Part shown: positions 1 through 7,870 of the stretch, one piece after another
Numbering within the stretch: the stretch's first letter is position 1
Layout: each line of letters begins with the position of its first letter
Source: Candidatus Wukongarchaeum yapensis
Lineage (GTDB): Archaea; Asgardarchaeota; Wukongarchaeia; Wukongarchaeales; Wukongarchaeaceae
Assembly: GCA_016840425.1 (NCBI GenBank)
Contig: JAEOSI010000063.1
Location: 1-10,083 of the forward strand
Reading direction: 5' to 3'
Length of the DNA stretch: 10,083 nt
Notes under the pieces: model-generated
The model's input: only the letters and a program-made list of their open reading frames with translations
The model's database searches: none
What the model was told of the DNA's origin: nothing
Translations under genes and position numbers: made by a program

Positions 1-1413
1 GGGTGCTTCGCGAACTAAACCAAACCGGTGAACCTTCGTCCTTAACCATGCTAGAAGGGTTTTGAGGTTGCCGTTAGATATCTCCTCTTCTAAATCTATA
101 ATTTCTCGTTTAGCTGCAGCAAAGATCTGCGCAGAGTATAGATGACCTAACATGTAACTTGGAAAATATCCAAAATAACCTGAGGACCAGTGAACATCTT
201 GTAGCACACCTTTGGTATTGTTCTCGGGCAAAATACCCAAATAATCCTGCATCTTAGCATTCCAAAGCTCTGGCAGATCTTTAACCTCTATCTCGCCTTT
301 GATTAGAGCTTCTTCTATTTCGAACCGAAACATGATGTGGAGACTGTATGTAACTTCATCTGCATAGATTCTAATCGGGGAAAGTTTCACGATGTTGATT
401 GCACGATAGAAGTCTTCTAATGGAATGCTTTCATAATAGGGGAAAATCCCTTGAAGTTTCGGGTAGAAAAACTTCCAAAAGGGGAGACTTCTACCCACAA
501 TGTTTTCCAACATTAGTGACTGTGACTCGTGAATACCCATTGAATACCCATTATCTAGATACAACCACTTCAACAGATGATCTATTCCCTGATCATAGAG
601 ACCATGACCGCCTTCATGCAGTGTACCGAATAAAGCAGGAGCCAGCTTCCCGTGCGTAAAGTGCGTTGTAACGCGGGCATCATCTGGTCCGATCGAGATG
701 GTAAAGGGATGATTGGTTTTATCCAGTCTTCCTTGATTAAAGTCGTAGCCAATTACCCTAAGAGCTTCCAAGGAGAGTTGCTTCTGAAGGTCTTCGGGAA
801 AGTGTCCTCTGAGAAGAGTTTCGTCTGGTTGATCTGATTGTTCTGTGAGTAACTTAACAAAGGGAACGAGATTTTTTCTAAGAGGTTTGATTATTCTTTT
901 GAGTTCTTCGCTGGTTATTCCTGGCTCATAGTTAGGTAAGAGTGCATCGTAGGGATTTTTATCATATCCATAGTGTTCGGCGAACTGACGTATAAAGCCG
1001 ATTATTTCTTCTAAAGCTGGTTGAAAATGTTTGAAATTCGATTTTTCTTTTGCTTTTACCCAAACATCATAAGCCCTTGCTTTAGCCTCATTGAAAGCTC
1101 TAAAAAGATCTTGCGGAATAGCTTTCGCTCTCTCATAGATGTTTCTTATCCGCCGAATCAGAGCCTGTTCTCCTGGATCAAGTTCTGTTTCCCTTCCAGA
1201 CAACTTTTCAATGGTTTCGCCTATTTCATGGGAAGTGAAAAGCTTGAACCATTCTGCTTTTACAGCCGCAAAAATTTCTGCTCTTCCCCTTGCTCCTTCA
1301 GTCGGCATCTTAGTTTGTTGATCCCACAACAATAGGTTAGACGCATAACCAAACTTACTAGCCCTCTTCAAAAAATCTGACAGCTTCTCGAGAAGACTTC
1401 TTGCTTCACTCAC
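1..1413 (-). CDS. Carboxypeptidase M32 (Taq/Pfu-type metallocarboxypeptidase), 3' end outside window
   Basis: Manual translation of the segments read gives one frame from GTG at 1413 (preceded by AAGGAG) to base 1. N-terminus SEARSLLEKLSDFLKRASKFGYASNLLLWDQQTKMP. Zinc motif HEGGH at 604-618, followed by MGIHESQSLMLENIVGRS, ADEVTYSLHIMFRFEIE and KGVLQDVHWSSGYFGYFPSYMLG, all M32 hallmarks. Absent from the ORF track because no stop codon lies in the window. Confidence 0.95.
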   Translation of the reverse strand, partial: MSEARSLLEKLSDFLKRASKFGYASNLLLWDQQTKMPTEGARGRAEIFAAVKAEWFKLFTSHEIGETIEKLSGRETELDPGEQALIRRIRNIYERAKAIPQDLFRAFNEAKARAYDVWVKAKEKSNFKHFQPALEEIIGFIRQFAEHYGYDKNPYDALLPNYEPGITSEELKRIIKPLRKNLVPFVKLLTEQSDQPDETLLRGHFPEDLQKQLSLEALRVIGYDFNQGRLDKTNHPFTISIGPDDARVTTHFTHGKLAPALFGTLHEGGHGLYDQGIDHLLKWLYLDNGYSMGIHESQSLMLENIVGRSLPFWKFFYPKLQGIFPYYESIPLEDFYRAINIVKLSPIRIYADEVTYSLHIMFRFEIEEALIKGEIEVKDLPELWNAKMQDYLGILPENNTKGVLQDVHWSSGYFGYFPSYMLGHLYSAQIFAAAKREIIDLEEEISNGNLKTLLAWLRTKVHRFGLVREAP

Positions 1414-1633: not shown

Positions 1634-4066
1634 TTATTCCTTTTTGAAGTATTTAAAATATGATACTATCGCACCGATTGCCGCTGCTGCAACTCCTATG
1701 CCTACACCTACCCAAAGCCACGGGAATCCTTCCTCTTCTTCCTCTGTTACCGTTTCATAACTAATGGAAAGATCAGATATTGTGGGCGTTTTCGAGGGGT
1801 TTGAAGTTGTTAAAACTGCTTTCCATTTCAACTGACTACCAGCATTCGTGAAGGAATGTTCTGATCCGGGATTGACTTGCTCCCAATGGGAACCATTATC
1901 CGGTGAAAGATAGTAGGTGATAGAACAGCCTGAAGGTATAAAATCATTACAAGTCAAATTTGCGCTAACCAATGATTCCGAACTGGAACCGGAAAAAACA
2001 GTTAAAGACTGAGCAACAGCAACAGATTCAAAGTAGTCCTTCACCACCTCTATAACCTGCAAACCAGAATCTCTGTCAGCTACGTAGGCGTAATCACCGG
2101 AAACAAAAACCCACCGAGCATAATCGGGGGTGTCGTAGACCCCGATTATGTTCGGGGTATCGCTGGCATTGGAAGGGTTTAGGGGATCACTAATATTAAC
2201 AACCTGCAAACCAGAATTTCCGTCAGCTACGTAGGCGTAATCACCGGAAACAAAAACACCCCAAGCATGATTGGGGGTGTCGTAGACGCTGGCATTAATA
2301 GGGTTTGCCGGATCACTAATATCAACAACCTGCAAACCAGAATTATAATCGGTTACGTAGGCGTAATCACCGGAAACAAAAACACCCATAGCACGATCTG
2401 GGGTGTCGTAGACGCTGGCATTAATAGGGTTTGCCGGATCACTAATATCAACAATCTGCAAACCAAAACTATGATCGGCTACGTAGGCATAATCACCGGA
2501 AACAAAAACACCCCGAGCATAACCAGGAGTGTCATAGGCGCTGGCATTAATAGGGTTTAGGGGATCACTAATATCAACAACCTGCAAACCAGAACCATCA
2601 TCAGCTATGTAGGCATAATCACCGGAAACAAAAACACACCGAGCAATAGAGGGGGTGTCATAGGCGCTGGCATTAATAGGGTTTAGGGGATCACTAATAT
2701 CAACAACCTGCAAACCAGAAAGTTCGTCGGCTATGTAGGCATAATCACCGGAAACAAAAACACACCGAGCATTATCGGGGGTGTCATAGGCGCTGGCATT
2801 AATAGGGTTTAGGGGATCGCTAATATCAACAACCTGCAAACCAGAACCCCAGTCGGCTACATAAGCGTAATCACCGGAAACAAAAACACCCCAAGCATCA
2901 TCGGGGGTGTCATAGGCGCTGGCATTGGAAGGAATTAGTAGATAATTGATATATAGAATCTGCAAACCAGAACCTCCATCGGCTACGTAGGCATAATCAC
3001 CGGAAACAAAAACACACCGAGCAATATTAGGGGTGTCATAGGAACCAGCAAAGGTAGGGTTTGCCGGATCACTAATATCAACAACCTGCAAACCAGAACC
3101 CCAGTCGGCTACGTAGGCATAATCACCGGAAACAAAAACACCAAAAGCAAGACTAGGGGTGTCATAGGCGCTGGCATTAATAGGGTTTAGGGGATCACTA
3201 ATATCAACAACCTGCAAACCAGAAACTTCGTCGGCTACGTAGGCATAATCACCGGAAACAAAAACATTACGAGCAATATCGGGGGTGTCATAGGCGCTGG
3301 CATTGGAAGGATTTGCGGGATCACTAATATCAACAATCTGCAAACCAGAATCTCTGCTGGCTACGTAGGCATAATCACCGGAAACAAAAACACCAATAGC
3401 ATTATCGGGGGTGTCATAGGCGCTGGCATTAATAGGGTTTAGGGGATCACTAATATCAACAACCTGCAAACCAGAACCAAAATCGGCTACATAAGCGTAG
3501 TCACCGGAAACAAAAACACACCGAGAAATATCGGGGGTGTCATAGGCGCTGGCATTAATAGGGTTTAGGGGATCACTAATATCAACAACCTGCAAACCAG
3601 AACCTGCATCGGCTATGTAGGCGTAGTCACCGGAAACAAAAACACCCTGAGCATTACCGGGGGTGTCGTAGGAGCCGGCGAGGCTAGGGTGTGTGGGATC
3701 ACTAATATCAACAACCTGCAAACCAGAACCCCAGTCAGCTACATAAGCGTAATCACCGGAAACAAAAACACCCCGAGCCTCACCAGGGGTGTCGTAGAAG
3801 CCGGTTAAAGGAGTGGGGTTGAAGAGGGTTATCCATGGGAGGTTGATGTTTCCAGAACCCCATCCTGAAACGTTTGTATTAGAAGGATCCATGTTGGTTG
3901 TCGTTGTGAAATCTTCAGAATAACTGTCAACAGCACTATTGACTGGTTTTACATTTGTTAGCAGTGTCAATGTGGAGAAGATTAAGACGGCTGAAATAAG
4001 GACGCTCCATCCTTTTCGAAGGTTTAGTTGTTTGTTATCCCTTTTCTCATGGTTTAAAACCATCAT
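1634..4066 (-). CDS. Membrane-anchored cell-surface protein with 14 LVIVD beta-propeller repeats
   Basis: 810-aa ORF with GAGGG RBS. Signal-peptide-like N-terminus (basic region, then WSVLISAVLIFSTLTLL). 14 repeats of ~42 aa, consensus YDTPxxAxxVFVSGDYAYVADxxSGLQVVDISDPxNP, from Y91. These are followed by a probable beta-sandwich domain, an EEEEE linker, a C-terminal hydrophobic helix and a basic tail KYFKKE. Confidence 0.93.
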   Translation of the reverse strand: MMVLNHEKRDNKQLNLRKGWSVLISAVLIFSTLTLLTNVKPVNSAVDSYSEDFTTTTNMDPSNTNVSGWGSGNINLPWITLFNPTPLTGFYDTPGEARGVFVSGDYAYVADWGSGLQVVDISDPTHPSLAGSYDTPGNAQGVFVSGDYAYIADAGSGLQVVDISDPLNPINASAYDTPDISRCVFVSGDYAYVADFGSGLQVVDISDPLNPINASAYDTPDNAIGVFVSGDYAYVASRDSGLQIVDISDPANPSNASAYDTPDIARNVFVSGDYAYVADEVSGLQVVDISDPLNPINASAYDTPSLAFGVFVSGDYAYVADWGSGLQVVDISDPANPTFAGSYDTPNIARCVFVSGDYAYVADGGSGLQILYINYLLIPSNASAYDTPDDAWGVFVSGDYAYVADWGSGLQVVDISDPLNPINASAYDTPDNARCVFVSGDYAYIADELSGLQVVDISDPLNPINASAYDTPSIARCVFVSGDYAYIADDGSGLQVVDISDPLNPINASAYDTPGYARGVFVSGDYAYVADHSFGLQIVDISDPANPINASVYDTPDRAMGVFVSGDYAYVTDYNSGLQVVDISDPANPINASVYDTPNHAWGVFVSGDYAYVADGNSGLQVVNISDPLNPSNASDTPNIIGVYDTPDYARWVFVSGDYAYVADRDSGLQVIEVVKDYFESVAVAQSLTVFSGSSSESLVSANLTCNDFIPSGCSITYYLSPDNGSHWEQVNPGSEHSFTNAGSQLKWKAVLTTSNPSKTPTISDLSISYETVTEEEEEGFPWLWVGVGIGVAAAAIGAIVSYFKYFKKE
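2039..3796 (-). repeat. Intragenic tandem array of 14 x 126-bp units
   Basis: Unit starts at 3796, 3670, 3544, 3418, 3292, 3166, 3040, 2914, 2788, 2662, 2536, 2410, 2284 and 2137 (unit 13 is 147 bp, unit 14 is truncated). The + strand 17-mer TCACCGGAAACAAAAAC and 10-mer CTGCAAACCA occur in all 14 units. Confidence 0.97.
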
Positions 4067-4299
4067 TTATCCCTCATAAAATCCTAAAAAGTTTTTAGAT
4101 TTCAGGAACTGTTTTGGTACAAAAATTAGGAAAAAAGAAAAGCGTAAAGGAAGGTGAATGTTTCATACCTTTCGAAGAACATTTTATTACCGATCGTTTA
4201 CGCGAAAACCGGTCAAAAAATGGGATCGCTGCTACTCCTTACAACTTACACTTTAAAGCGGGATACTATTTTGTACCAACTTAAGTTTAAGAAAAACTG

Positions 4300-4312
4300 T
4301 ATAAAACTTTTT
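4300..4312 (-). promoter_or_regulatory. Putative BRE/TATA element (GAAAAAG-TTTTATA) upstream of the LVIVD gene
   Basis: A purine-rich run directly precedes TTTTATA on the minus strand. It would imply a ~200-nt 5' leader, so the assignment is tentative. Confidence 0.35.
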
Positions 4313-4528
4313 CTTTAAGTGTTAGTAAGTATCAGTAGACTCCGAAACTAATTTTTTAGTCATTTTTAAAGGAAGGTGCTAGGGCAAAGATTTTGCAAGC
4401 GGTTCAATACTTTCACAAGTTTACTTAAAAGATGATTTGAAGAATAAGCGTGAATTCATCGATTTTCGAAAGGATTGTAAGAGAGATAACAGAGAAAATG
4501 TCGTGAAAGTGTAGTTTCATGACATTTT

Positions 4529-4788
4529 TCAAATAGTTGTTATGTCTAATATTTCTATCGCGGCTATGTCTCCTTTTTTATCATGGTGGAGGATTACTTG
4601 TCCATCGTCTGTTGGTTCGCCTTCTGTATGTTCTGCATGTTTAAACTTTATGTACAGGTCTCCTACATCCTCCCCGTAATCGGCCATAATCACTTTTCTG
4701 GAAAGTTTTAATCCATACTTTTTTCCACCAGCTCTAAAACCTCTCTTATGTTTATATCTAAGAGAGATTCAACTTTTTGAATCGCTTA
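4529..4788 (-). pseudogene. DUF2283-family small protein, frameshifted and lacking an upstream start codon
   Basis: 4687-4529 encodes MADYGEDVGDLYIKFKHAEHTEGEPTDDGQVILHHDKKGDIAAIEILDITTI*, matching the DUF2283 pattern (Y-D-x-x-x-D-x-L-Y-I-x-F ... I-x-x-I-E-I-L-D). The upstream segment AIQKVESLLDINIREVLELVEK is in another frame and joins it across an A6 run (T6 at 4719-4724). A GGGGAG RBS at 4792-4797 is followed by TAA rather than a start codon. Confidence 0.72.
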
Positions 4789-4845
4789 TATCTCCCCTGC
4801 TTTCTTTTCAAGCTTGTATGATATGTATTTCTAGTCTAATTAAGC

Positions 4846-4922
4846 GAATTTAGTTTCCAGTAAAAAAATCGTGTGACTGTTTAACTATAAAAGTTTGAAG
4901 GATTAGCTATTGTTGAGGATTA
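4846..4922. repeat. 77-bp imperfect direct repeat, copy A
   Basis: Ungapped manual alignment with 5858-5934 gives 64/77 identities, including an exact 18-mer TAAAAGTTTGAAGGATTA. Confidence 0.9.
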
Positions 4923-4958
4923 TGGGTGCTATTATATTGTAAGAACAAAAGAAAAGTT

Positions 4959-4985
4959 AAAAAAAGCGGTTTCGCTTCTGTTTTT
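4959..4985. terminator. Small hairpin flanked by A- and T-tracts (possible bidirectional terminator)
   Basis: AAGCG-GTTT-CGCTT stem-loop at 4964-4977, with an A7 run on the left and T5 on the right. The stem is short. Confidence 0.3.
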
Positions 4986-5141
4986 ATACATATCGTTAAA
5001 GAGCTACTGGTGACGGTTTATTGTCTTTGATGTTATAAACGTAAACGTAAAATAGAAATATTACCGGCAAACTAAGTAAGGATATTTGTAAGAGAAGTAG
5101 TAAAGGGTGATTTTTTATTCTTTAAAAATGGTTGGTGTTAT

Positions 5142-5336
5142 ATGTTGGAGGATTTTCAAGGGCAGTATATAGTGGATAAAAAGGGGAGGAGGATGGGTGT
5201 AATTCTTTCAATTGAGGAGTATGAGGAACTTTTAGAGGATCTTCACGATCTTTCTATTGTTGCTGAGCGTCGGGATGAGCCCACAACAACTTTTGAAGAA
5301 GTTAAGAAAAAGCTGAAAAAAGATGGGCTCTTATAA
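5142..5336 (+). CDS. Type II antitoxin (RelB/Phd-YefM-like), partner of the downstream RelE
   Basis: 64-aa protein with acidic core, QYIVDKKGRRMGVILSIEEYEELLEDLHDL...ERRDEPT..FEEVKKKLKKDGLL. It overlaps the toxin start by 14 nt, the usual antitoxin-first arrangement. Confidence 0.85.
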   Translation: MLEDFQGQYIVDKKGRRMGVILSIEEYEELLEDLHDLSIVAERRDEPTTTFEEVKKKLKKDGLL

Positions 5337-5589
5337 GGTTTTATGGAAAAAATCAGCGGAAAGAGACCTACGAAACATAGACCTCCAACAAATTCCAAGA
5401 ATAATTAAAGCGGTTGAATCCCTTGAAGATGATCCCTTCCCACCACAATCCCGTAAACTTAGGGGTTCAAAGCAAACTTACAGGATTCGCGTAGGGGATT
5501 ATAGGATAATATATCAAGCGGATATCAAAGCAAAAGTTGTAATAATCTATCATATACGCCACCGCAAAGTAACATATCGTAAACGATAA
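5323..5589 (+). CDS. relE: RelE/ParE-family toxin (RelE/StbE-like mRNA interferase)
   Basis: 88-aa basic protein: YKVLWKKSAERDL, DPFPPQSRKLRG, YRIRVGDYRIIY, HIRHRK. These are characteristic RelE motifs. Confidence 0.9.
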   Translation: MGSYKVLWKKSAERDLRNIDLQQIPRIIKAVESLEDDPFPPQSRKLRGSKQTYRIRVGDYRIIYQADIKAKVVIIYHIRHRKVTYRKR

Positions 5590-5857
5590 AAATTGATACA
5601 ACTATCCACCTAATAGCCCCCCAAATTTTAAGCCTGTATCTACTATTTATCCCATTTCTTGCCTCTAAACATGCTAATGTCTTCGTTTTTTTATGGGAGC
5701 CTTTTTTAACCCCTATTAAGCCTGGCTCTAATATTAGTTTAGCTGTTCTCTTATTCACCTATTCTGGATCAAAAAACCTTTCCTAAAGCACCCGTTAAAT
5801 GCTCGTATTTTTACGTGCTAAAATTTTTCAGGCGATACTAGCACCTTATAATCTAGG

Positions 5858-5934
5858 GAATTTAGTTTCAAATAAAAAAACCGTGAAACAGTTAAACAGT
5901 AAAAGTTTGAAGGATTAACCATCGTTAAGGATTA
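5858..5934. repeat. 77-bp imperfect direct repeat, copy B
   Basis: 64/77 identical to 4846-4922, same orientation, offset 1012 bp. Confidence 0.9.
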
Positions 5935-6018
5935 GGGCTATACTTTCGCAACAAGAAACAACTAATTAAAATATGAGACACTGAAAAGGGGTCCTTGGCT
6001 GTTGACTGGCACATTACT

Positions 6019-7002
6019 TTAAGGTTTCTCTTCTTTTTCTTCCTCTTTCTTTGTTATTTCTTGCTTTTTTTTATCTAGTATGATGTTTTGCATGAATTTC
6101 GTTGAGGTAAAAGCGCTTTCAACTTCGCCTACAGTTAGATCCTGTAGTTCTGAAACCGGTTCTACTTCTTCTTTCATTAAACCTTGTTCGGCAGCATATT
6201 CTAGAGAACTTAACTTTTGTCTTTCTGACCTTGTTTCTGTTCGTTGTAGATAGAAATGTGAAATCATGTGGAAAACTCTGCCATAGCCGTAAGGGAAAGT
6301 TATTGCTATGGGGGCTTCTCCGTATTTTTTTTCAAGTTCTTTGCTTGTTATTAGTACTTTAACCTTATTTTTGTCAAGGATTTGAATGGGATAACTTTGA
6401 CCTTCAAGCCACCAAACTGGCTCAGATTTTTCAGTTAGTAATCCTTGAACGAAAATATTGTCTGGATCAAGTATTTCGATTCGAACAACGTCATCTGGCG
6501 TCGGCTTTCCCGTGTATTTGGCGATGCCTGGAAATGCTTTTTCTATGATGAACTTGAGCGCCCAGTCTGTAGTGATCAAATATCCACCATTTTTAACGAA
6601 TTTACGGATAAGTTCCACGCCTTCTGGCATAATTTCGCTTCCCGGACAGTTTATGAAAAGGATCTGGTCTGATCTAATTTGGAGGTCTTCGACATCTATT
6701 GGGTCTATCACCGTGAAAGGGATTTCAGTTGGAGCGAATACTGTTTCTGCGTGATCGTAGCTTCCTCTTACGATTATTATGTCTGATTCGTTGACGTTGC
6801 GTAAAATTTCATAATCTTCTGGGGCTTCTTTTTTCATTTTTGCGAAGAGGAGTTTTGATGCTGCAGAGTATGCTTTTTTCATCTTTTCTGGAGTTTCTTT
6901 TCCCGTCTGTTCAACAGTTTGGAACTCTCCTTCAATGGTAATCGGTGGCTTTTTTTCTTGTTTTTTATTCTGAGAAATTTTTTCTGGATCAGGATTGTTC
7001 AT
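6019..7002 (-). CDS. Conserved hypothetical protein, possibly class I glutamine amidotransferase-like fold
   Basis: 327-aa ORF with GAGAGG RBS. The core (IIIVRGSYD...ILFINCPG...IRKFVKNGGYLITTDWAL...GYGRVFHMISHF) resembles GATase1/ThuA-like alpha/beta domains. The ends are charged and low-complexity. The fold call is pattern-based only. Confidence 0.75.
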   Translation of the reverse strand: MNNPDPEKISQNKKQEKKPPITIEGEFQTVEQTGKETPEKMKKAYSAASKLLFAKMKKEAPEDYEILRNVNESDIIIVRGSYDHAETVFAPTEIPFTVIDPIDVEDLQIRSDQILFINCPGSEIMPEGVELIRKFVKNGGYLITTDWALKFIIEKAFPGIAKYTGKPTPDDVVRIEILDPDNIFVQGLLTEKSEPVWWLEGQSYPIQILDKNKVKVLITSKELEKKYGEAPIAITFPYGYGRVFHMISHFYLQRTETRSERQKLSSLEYAAEQGLMKEEVEPVSELQDLTVGEVESAFTSTKFMQNIILDKKKQEITKKEEEKEEKP

Positions 7003-7033
7003 ATTTTTTTCCTCTCATGTTTCTTAGTTTGGG

Positions 7034-7042
7034 ATATAAAAG
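7034..7042 (-). promoter_or_regulatory. Putative TATA box (CTTTTATAT) for the 6019-7002 gene
   Basis: Located ~32 nt upstream of the start codon, in the divergent intergenic region. Confidence 0.5.
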
Positions 7043-7123
7043 GTAAGTTTGATATTTATGCATAACTACCGTTTAGCAGACTTAGGTATTATTTATTAAT
7101 TAGATTAATTAGGTGAAGGTTTC

Positions 7124-7870
7124 ATGGATATGTGGAAATATTATTATATTTGTCTTAAAAGACATTTTTTATGTAATCCGTTTAACAAGGAGAAGTTTGA
7201 AAAGTTTTGCAGTCTTCTAAGGCTAAAACGAGGAGCACGCGTCCTAGACATAGGTTGTGGGAAAGGTGAATTCCTGATAAGGCTAGCAGAACTATATGAT
7301 ATATCAGGCGTGGGCGTTGATTTATCTCCTTATACTGTTAAGGAGTTTTTAGAGAAATATCAAAAACTTATACCTAGATCTGATATTAAGATCTTAGAAA
7401 TGGACGGTGCAGATTATAAACCCGAATCCCTTGAGTCCTTCGATTTAACCATGTGCATAGGAGCAAGTTGGATATATGGTGGCTACCGTGGAACAATACA
7501 GGCTCTAAAAAAGATGACGAAACCCGGTGGATTAATAGCAGTAGGACAACCTTTTTGGTTGAAAGAGACAAGTGAAGAGTATTTGAAGGCTGAAGGATTA
7601 AAGAGAGAAGAGATTGGCAGTCACCAAGATAATGTAAAAGTAGGGGAAGAAGAAGGATTAACGTGTCTTTACACCATGGTAAGCAACCATGATGATTGGG
7701 ATCATTATGAGACGCTCCAATGGTGGGCAGTAGACGATTACGTGATGGCTAATCCTGATGATGAGGATATTCCAGAACTATTAGAGGGAAAAAGACGAGA
7801 AAAGGAAAACTATCTTAGCTGGGGTAGAGAGACACTAGGTTGGGCCATATATCTTTTCAAGAAACCATAG
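7124..7870 (+). CDS. Class I SAM-dependent methyltransferase, YjhP-like
   Basis: AGGTGA RBS. Motif I VLDIGCGKG, GVDLSP and LKKMTKPGG. CIGASWIYGG, GQPFW, WDHYE..QW and ANPDDED resemble E. coli YjhP as I recall it (not verified by alignment). Confidence 0.9.
   Translation: MDMWKYYYICLKRHFLCNPFNKEKFEKFCSLLRLKRGARVLDIGCGKGEFLIRLAELYDISGVGVDLSPYTVKEFLEKYQKLIPRSDIKILEMDGADYKPESLESFDLTMCIGASWIYGGYRGTIQALKKMTKPGGLIAVGQPFWLKETSEEYLKAEGLKREEIGSHQDNVKVGEEEGLTCLYTMVSNHDDWDHYETLQWWAVDDYVMANPDDEDIPELLEGKRREKENYLSWGRETLGWAIYLFKKP

Follow-up and report, generated by a model that had tools for sequence, protein, structure and literature searches.

Long target duplication as the most likely origin of direct repeats around a RelBE-type toxin-antitoxin operon in an Asgard archaeon

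Introduction

How toxin-antitoxin (TA) pairs spread without a visible mobility gene is an old question. It arises in a particular form at one locus of Candidatus Wukongarchaeum yapensis, where a small TA operon stands between two similar, directly repeated stretches of non-coding DNA. The window analysed here is the entire contig C27, 10,083 bp in length, of a metagenome-assembled genome of 2.16 Mb that is 92% complete. A first-pass annotation of this DNA had offered two explanations of the repeats, namely a cassette delimited by recombination sites and mobilised in trans, or a promoter block duplicated in the course of tandem duplication and gene replacement. From the evidence assembled below we conclude that an old insertion, which duplicated its target and left this scar, is the most likely history of the locus; we do not regard it as an integron-type cassette.

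Results

The repeat and its surroundings

The features on which the argument rests are the following (window coordinates).

4313..6024, no strand: variable island with no counterpart in the same-genus genome G001
4529..4693, minus strand: left-hand neighbour at a distance of 144 nt from R1, a DUF2283 gene standing alone (54 aa; the family is antitoxin-like)
4837..4925, no strand: R1, first copy of the direct repeat, non-coding; A7/T7 run at 4862-4868, near-dyad ACTGTTTAACTAT at 4876-4888, two AGGATTA words 17 bp apart
4926..5848, plus strand: inter-repeat segment of 923 bp, read as inserted DNA
4962..4985, no strand: short G+C hairpin immediately following R1; T runs on either strand make it resemble a bidirectional terminator
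5111..5129, plus strand: A/T-rich TATA-like boxes TTTTTTATT and TTTAAAAAT, 13-31 nt before the antitoxin ATG
5142..5336, plus strand: antitoxin, 64 aa, RelB-like (PF18506, weaker Phd/YefM match)
5323..5589, plus strand: toxin, 88 aa, ParE/RelE superfamily (PF05016)
5686..5707, plus strand: T7 and T6 runs, about 100 nt past the toxin stop
5849..5937, no strand: R2, second copy of the direct repeat, 81% identical to R1
6019..7002, minus strand: right-hand neighbour, gene for a protein of 327 aa without a Pfam family; present once here and conserved in the congener

A repeat search of the window returned the two copies as direct repeat family D3, an ungapped pair of 89 nt with 72 of 89 positions identical and a start-to-start distance of 1012 bp. 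The description given in the first-pass annotation, of two ungapped non-coding copies that are 83% identical and enclose the TA operon, is accurate for a 77-nt core (4846-4922 and 5858-5934, 13 mismatches) within this fuller length. Since R1 and R2 match with E = 5e-18 in a BLAST search against the whole 2.16-Mb genome, their similarity is not due to chance. Neither copy is coding: stops interrupt all six frames, and no ORF reaches 40 aa. A MAFFT alignment hints at a longer repeat reaching to about 4963/5972 (some 125 nt); the extension is not significant when compared with shuffled sequences. The sequences flanking R1 and R2 share no homology on either side, and the repeat is therefore sharp-edged. 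The 17 mismatches (9 transitions and 8 transversions) are spread as chance would spread them, and the longest perfect run common to both copies is 18 bp (p=0.24). Such a distribution, together with the sharp edges, is the pattern expected from neutral drift of a scar.

The structure is real and no artefact of assembly, since an independent JGI metagenome contig (Ga0209635_10032661, L032), 99.2% identical to window 3402-7618, carries R1 and R2 both unchanged. An ORF lying inside the unit is also encoded, with one residue changed, in a third assembly. The differences between the window and the JGI contig are themselves unevenly placed: 29 of 32 fall within 400 bp of the methyltransferase gene (7219-7615) and none in 4578-7218, a cluster resembling a tract brought in by recombination from a diverged allele.

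A self-contained toxin-antitoxin operon

A Pfam scan of the window genes showed that the TA operon is the only intact content between the copies and that it runs antiparallel to its neighbours, as the first-pass annotation had stated. These neighbours, all on the minus strand, encode an M32 peptidase, an 810-aa LVIVD propeller protein, the DUF2283 protein and the 327-aa protein, the last of which has a Lys/Glu-rich tail; a methyltransferase, a DUF362 protein and ThiI are also encoded in the window. The scan likewise upheld the claim that the window holds no transposase or integrase; neither a tRNA nor an attI site or cassette array was found in it. Upstream of the LVIVD gene, window 4056-4312 is 70-74% identical to DNA upstream of its paralogues (C45:1975-2126 in the same genome, contigs C38 and C97 in G001) and is a conserved leader or promoter region of this gene family.

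The antitoxin matches PF18506 with 28.9 bits (cut-off 27) and the toxin PF05016 with 48.1 bits (cut-off 23). The arrangement of a small antitoxin gene followed by a RelE/ParE-fold toxin gene, which overlaps it by 14 nt, points to a type II TA system of the RelBE type. Among solved structures the best relative of the toxin is aRelE PHS013 of Pyrococcus horikoshii (1wmi), followed by RelE3 of Methanocaldococcus jannaschii, Rv2866 and YoeB; the PDB matches include 1wmi, 3bpq and 3g5o. To judge from the sequence, the TATA-like boxes at 5111-5129 are a candidate for the pair's own archaeal promoter, and the T7 and T6 runs at 5686-5707 likely mark the end of the operon transcript. With a TATA-like box of its own about 27 nt upstream of the ATG, a putative T-run terminator and a terminator-like hairpin placed directly after R1, the operon looks self-sufficient, and R1 is unlikely to be its promoter.

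Within the inter-repeat segment, relatives in other Asgard genomes exist for the coding part only (about 5155-5577), and the operon is surrounded within the insert by 216 bp and 259 bp of orphan non-coding DNA, in which tblastn, tblastx and blastn detected no remnant genes. Next to R2 lies a 77-aa ORF, antisense to the 3´ end of the toxin gene, whose only relative among 5.8 billion proteins is a one-residue strain variant. R2 itself is situated 82 nt (its start) to 170 nt (its end) downstream of the stop codon of the minus-strand gene 6019-7002, and no long run of T precedes its minus-strand T7 run (5874-5880) on the way from that stop.

Close relatives of the toxin (49-67% amino acid identity) are scattered over four families, with none found in its own genus or order, which argues that the TA pair is horizontally mobile. 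No copy of the toxin was found on viral contigs. Flanking repeats were absent from the five closest homologous loci (the same 49-67% range).

A private repeat in a variable island

The first-pass annotation had asked how many copies of the repeat exist in the genome and its relatives. BLAST and a maximally sensitive nhmmer profile search both gave two copies only in the source genome. A sequence search of the congener G001 gave none, and in 400 Asgard genomes there were only weak matches of 20-45 nt, directed mostly to an A-rich stretch just outside the repeat. Exact-pattern scans of species-representative genomes, JGI metagenomes and viral contigs yielded nothing beyond the same locus in the 99.2% identical contig. 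A multi-copy element was considered and rejected: 18 GTDB matches to an 18-mer and more than 120 viral matches to a 16-mer stop at 18-29 nt and are chance hits.

G001 is the only other genome of the genus. Its genes corresponding to those that flank the locus are 87-92% identical, nothing in it matches window 4313-6024, and other genes occur instead; the TA pair evidently sits in a variable island. The right-hand neighbourhood is present twice in G001, both versions with other genes at the island's place. The 327-aa gene is found twice (C10 and C125), and since different genes follow each copy, its 3´ side is a hot spot of variation. Intergenic DNA of G001 is already unalignable here. Given this, and the lack of the island in G001, the divergence of R1 and R2 to 81% identity is compatible with insertion after the species split. 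According to the first-pass annotation, a count of only two copies combined with a lack of empty-site alleles would speak against its proposal. The count of two held in all searches; no empty-site allele was found either, the sole congener lacking the whole island including any single repeat copy, so that its site is not comparable. Judged by this yardstick, a recombination-site origin finds no support.

Neither fold nor paired recombination boxes

DNA folds of both copies on both strands reach -4.6 to -5.9 kcal/mol (z from +0.4 to +0.9 relative to shuffled sequences). With RNA parameters, only the minus strand of R1 has a negative z (-0.8), the other three strands lying between +1.4 and +1.6; of all eight folds, this is the single one that is better than shuffles, and marginally so. 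A structured RNA or tRNA remnant was rejected, since Rfam gave no match in the region up to E=1, a tRNA is lacking and none of the folds clearly beats shuffles. An attC site was rejected as well, hairpin and R''/R' box pair both being absent, which bears out the earlier impression that the repeats do not fit canonical attC. A search through the entire window for RYYYAAC...GTTRRRY pairs with paired ends, at a distance of 50-150 nt, gave no match on the plus strand and one weak, unrelated match on the minus strand (852-937). Each copy has a single box, GTTTAAC in R1 (fitting RYYYAAC) and GTTAAAC in R2 (fitting GTTRRRY), and the two are mutually reverse complementary.

The sole dyad in the repeat is ACWGTTWAACWGT, of 6-1-6 bp; among the 25 longest of 46 inverted-repeat pairs in the window, none lies inside R1 or R2 and no dif-like 11-6-11 site was seen. 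Terminal inverted repeats are absent at 4926/5848 and the unit is single-copy, on which grounds a MITE or other non-autonomous transposon was dismissed. The near-dyad and the AGGATTA pair with its 17-bp spacing are kept in both copies. A regulon for either motif was dismissed: neither is enriched, and the dyad and its shorter forms do not exceed in the genome their frequency in shuffled sequences. Apart from the repeat, the genome has just one AGGATTA-N-AGGATTA pair, on contig C121 (about 780-812, minus strand). It precedes a 244-aa ORF by roughly 50 nt, has a TATA-like word after it and is arranged in the same way as in the repeat. Three tyrosine recombinase (PF00589) genes are present in the genome, on contigs C133, C189 and C192, none of them near the locus.

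Repeat-flanked RelE-type loci in other Asgard genomes

Bracketing direct repeats, 30-120 nt on each side of the operon, were found at 12 of 29 RelE-type loci of other Asgard genomes, a set partly drawn from related genomes and not fully independent. As a control, a random 450-bp segment was bracketed in 8 of 500 random windows of the source genome (1.6%). No bracketing was seen in two further controls, namely 11 random loci from other Asgard genomes and 50 test centres within genus g29, to which five of the loci belong. The antitoxin at the repeat-flanked loci is of another type than that of the window pair.

These flanked loci are of two kinds, private duplications and multi-copy arrays. The former kind is seen in G050, a genome of genus g29, where a RelE-type operon (contig C168, L213) lies between private 36-38-bp duplicates at 1166-1203 and 1733-1768. 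In G051 (C75, L229) and G069 (C148, L230) the site is uninterrupted and the one copy present is the BRE/TATA region of the downstream gene. Comparison of G050 with these two genomes thus reveals a clean insertion polymorphism with target duplication. The locus in G048, set against G057, was considered as a second empty site; it is not clean, the repeat there being a multi-copy element.

At other g29 loci and in genera g36 and g39, flanking repeats are multi-copy, tens per genome, and recur at intervals of 1-5 kb along one strand of single contigs. In these arrays (L217, L205, L220, L223, L224, L225 and their matches) the repeats separate small two-gene units; some units fold to imperfect hairpins and others do not. 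The arrays are cassette-array-like and may correspond to the attC clusters described from Asgard archaea (PMC9668308). The background statement of the first-pass annotation, that TA pairs occur in cassette arrays, holds for other Asgard genera. The window repeat, being private and unstructured, belongs with the private-duplication kind.

Other repeats in the source genome

Repeat-flanked segments carrying ordinary genes also occur in the source genome, and for this reason the structure is not tied specifically to the TA pair. On contig C61, a private non-coding repeat of 123 nt (80% identity; 11131-11253 and 12737-12857) stands just upstream of the genes for ZnuA and an ABC-3 permease; placed at two unrelated genes of one metal-uptake system, it may be a duplicated regulatory block. 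A similar precedent of a shared promoter block, before the genes for a DtxR-like repressor and FeoB on C81, was dropped as this repeat pair belongs to a multi-copy family, with 6-7 partners in the genome. Other stretches (C77:2950-3200 and 5950-6200, C88:5650-5900, C62:6450-6900, C5:200-400 and about 15 more) have more than 20 matching partners each and may represent one dispersed family of 200-250-nt repeats or several.

Discussion

Origin of the repeats

We give about an even chance to the explanation that a long target duplication, made when the TA operon was inserted, left R1 and R2 as its two halves. According to this scheme, the ancestral spacer between the minus-strand 327-aa gene and the DUF2283 gene would have held a single 89-bp copy. 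A foreign piece of about 0.92 kb, bringing a self-sufficient RelB/RelE-type operon (its own promoter-like box, two overlapping genes and a T-run terminator), would have entered this spacer, and the 89-bp target would have ended up on both sides, for example because a widely staggered break was filled in, or through an equivalent recombination route. The 327-aa gene would thereby retain in R2 its 3´ flank, T7 run included, and the DUF2283 gene would retain in R1 its upstream region. As target copying left the flanks of both neighbours in place, the insertion would have done little harm. The copies would afterwards have drifted to their present identity. With a longest shared perfect run of 18 bp, recombination deleting the pair should by now be rare, and toxin release following loss of the pair would select against such loss.

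Several lines of evidence favour target duplication. The repeat is private and two-copy, has sharp edges, shows chance-like mismatches and does not fold. The TA pair is mobile, the polymorphism in G050 provides a precedent, RelE-type loci are enriched for bracketing repeats (12 of 29), and the same mode of entry has been published for restriction-modification systems. When set beside the definition of long target duplication in PMC2853133, the locus displays repeats longer than 30 bp (89 bp), an insert shorter than 20 kb (923 bp) with both genes intact, no mobility gene in or beside the insert, and a repeat that is two-copy rather than multi-copy. Every feature of that definition is present in the window except an empty-site genome, and this last one is present for G050 in the form of G051 and G069.

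There are also points against it. In the congener both the island and any single repeat copy are missing, so that we infer the origin of the repeat from target DNA instead of reading it from an empty site. The five closest relatives of the operon have no flanking repeats, and the flanked loci carry another antitoxin type and in several genera are bounded by multi-copy array elements. The 19% divergence implies that the event is old or that the copies were never identical.

Three other origins have to be weighed against target duplication. It is rather unlikely, in our view, that the copies first arose by a local duplication of non-coding DNA (for instance a tandem duplication of a gene flank) and that the TA pair later landed between them or replaced what was there, the bracket being a coincidence. 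Other private non-coding repeat pairs near unrelated genes, such as that before ZnuA and the ABC-3 permease on C61, the repeat-flanked segments with ordinary genes and the 216 and 259 bp of orphan DNA in the insert would all agree with such a history. However, no remnant of a duplicated gene or flank extends beyond the 89 bp, bracketing pairs are rare around random 450-bp segments (1.6%) and RelE-type loci are strongly enriched for them. The proposal of the first-pass annotation that a duplicated block was left by duplication and gene replacement comes close to our conclusion; we read the block as target copied at insertion and not as a duplicated promoter, the operon having its own TATA-like box and a terminator-like hairpin after R1.

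The cassette reading, in which the repeats are att-like or non-canonical attC sites and the 1012-bp unit moves as a circle by way of a recombinase encoded elsewhere, could draw on the enrichment of integron-type arrays in Asgard archaea, where TA pairs are common cassettes (PMC9668308), on the multi-copy repeats clustered at 1-5 kb around RelE-type pairs in g29, g36 and g39, on the three tyrosine recombinase genes on other contigs, and on the fit of GTTAAAC in R2 to GTTRRRY and of the R1 complement, GTTTAAC, to RYYYAAC. At the locus itself this reading fails on several counts and we consider it improbable: two copies only were found anywhere searched, the DNA folds at about -5 kcal/mol, weaker than shuffles, and forms no hairpin, the window scan showed no RYYYAAC...GTTRRRY pair in or near the repeats, recombinase, attI and array are absent from the window, and at 81% identity with random mismatches there is no conserved core. 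Very unlikely, finally, is a working regulatory or RNA-coding block kept twice. Examples would be an operator for the antitoxin, made up of the AGGATTA pair and the dyad ACWGTTWAACWGT, or a promoter that in R1 drives DUF2283 and in R2 an antisense RNA into the toxin 3´ end. The retention of the AGGATTA pair and near-dyad in both copies, the single further occurrence of the pair, before the ORF on C121, and TATA-like words on both strands would suit a function of this sort. Yet the dyad and its shorter forms are not over-represented relative to shuffles, mismatches are not clustered away from any motif, no conserved gene follows R2 on either strand (the 77-aa ORF has no relatives among 5.8 billion proteins beyond the near-identical strain variant), the repeat sequence has no RNA structure, and the TA pair has its own promoter-like box, with a terminator-like hairpin between it and R1.

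If target duplication is accepted, a wider pattern can be imagined. RelE-type TA operons of Asgard archaea could be small mobile units, reaching from promoter to stop codon, that copy 30-90 bp of target on entry; this generalization is put forward tentatively and we think it doubtful. The corollary is no firmer: the copied target would often be a promoter or terminator of the neighbour, so that neighbours stay expressed, and the window would be an old example. Were this true, long target duplication would be extended from bacterial restriction-modification to archaeal TA systems, and attention would be directed to break-repair or integrase activity. Whatever its generality, direct repeats around a TA pair are by themselves no evidence of an integron. 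Private duplications and multi-copy array repeats both occur in Asgard genomes, and should be distinguished by copy number and folding.

Comparison with known systems

Xer-dependent modules (pdif modules of Acinetobacter plasmids, IMEX) are small, often carry TA pairs, are bounded by short recombination sites and use a recombinase of the host in trans. Their pdif sites are 28 bp long, with two 11-bp arms around a 6-bp spacer, usually alternate in orientation and are multi-copy. The window resembles them in having a small TA module between sites; its repeats, in contrast, are direct, 89 bp long and private, and contain only the 6-1-6 bp dyad. The attL and attR sites of integrated archaeal plasmids and viruses are direct repeats of tens of bases flanking foreign DNA; they usually overlap a tRNA or a gene end, and the element encodes an integrase. 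The window differs from these in lacking both tRNA and integrase and in enclosing less than 1 kb.

Integron cassettes are closer in appearance. CALINs, clusters of attC sites without an integrase, have been described in Archaea by Ghaly et al. 2022 (PMC9668308), and the likeness to the window lies in a unit of about 1 kb, a TA pair between similar repeats and a phylum enriched in arrays. Whereas attC sites form an imperfect hairpin, have paired R''/R' boxes and occur in arrays, the window repeat has no fold, no box pair and two copies, with no integrase or attI nearby.

The best match is provided by the long target duplications of restriction-modification complexes in bacteria, described by Nobusato et al. 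2000 (as cited in PMC3874152), in which repeats of more than 30 bp, unique in the genome, flank the inserted complex and no mobility gene is present (PMC2853133; PMC3874152). In the survey by Furuta, Abe and Kobayashi 2010 no archaeal case passed (PMC2853133). Common to these insertions and the window are an addiction module that has no mobility gene and unique direct repeats of more than 30 bp in or next to gene ends, with a length that varies by locus. The published repeats are, however, nearly identical and each has its empty-site genome, whereas the window copies are 81% alike; the published modules are bacterial restriction-modification complexes, the present one a RelBE-type pair in an Asgard archaeon. 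As the trigger, the authors suggested that the restriction enzyme breaks DNA, something of which a RelE-type toxin is not capable. If our interpretation is right, the window locus and the clearer polymorphism in g29 represent in Archaea a mode of entry so far documented only for bacterial restriction-modification, one that leaves the signals of neighbouring genes intact. The locus is best filed as an archaeal TA case of a known rearrangement, long target duplication; as an example of the entry of selfish gene pairs into archaeal genomes it is modest but instructive.
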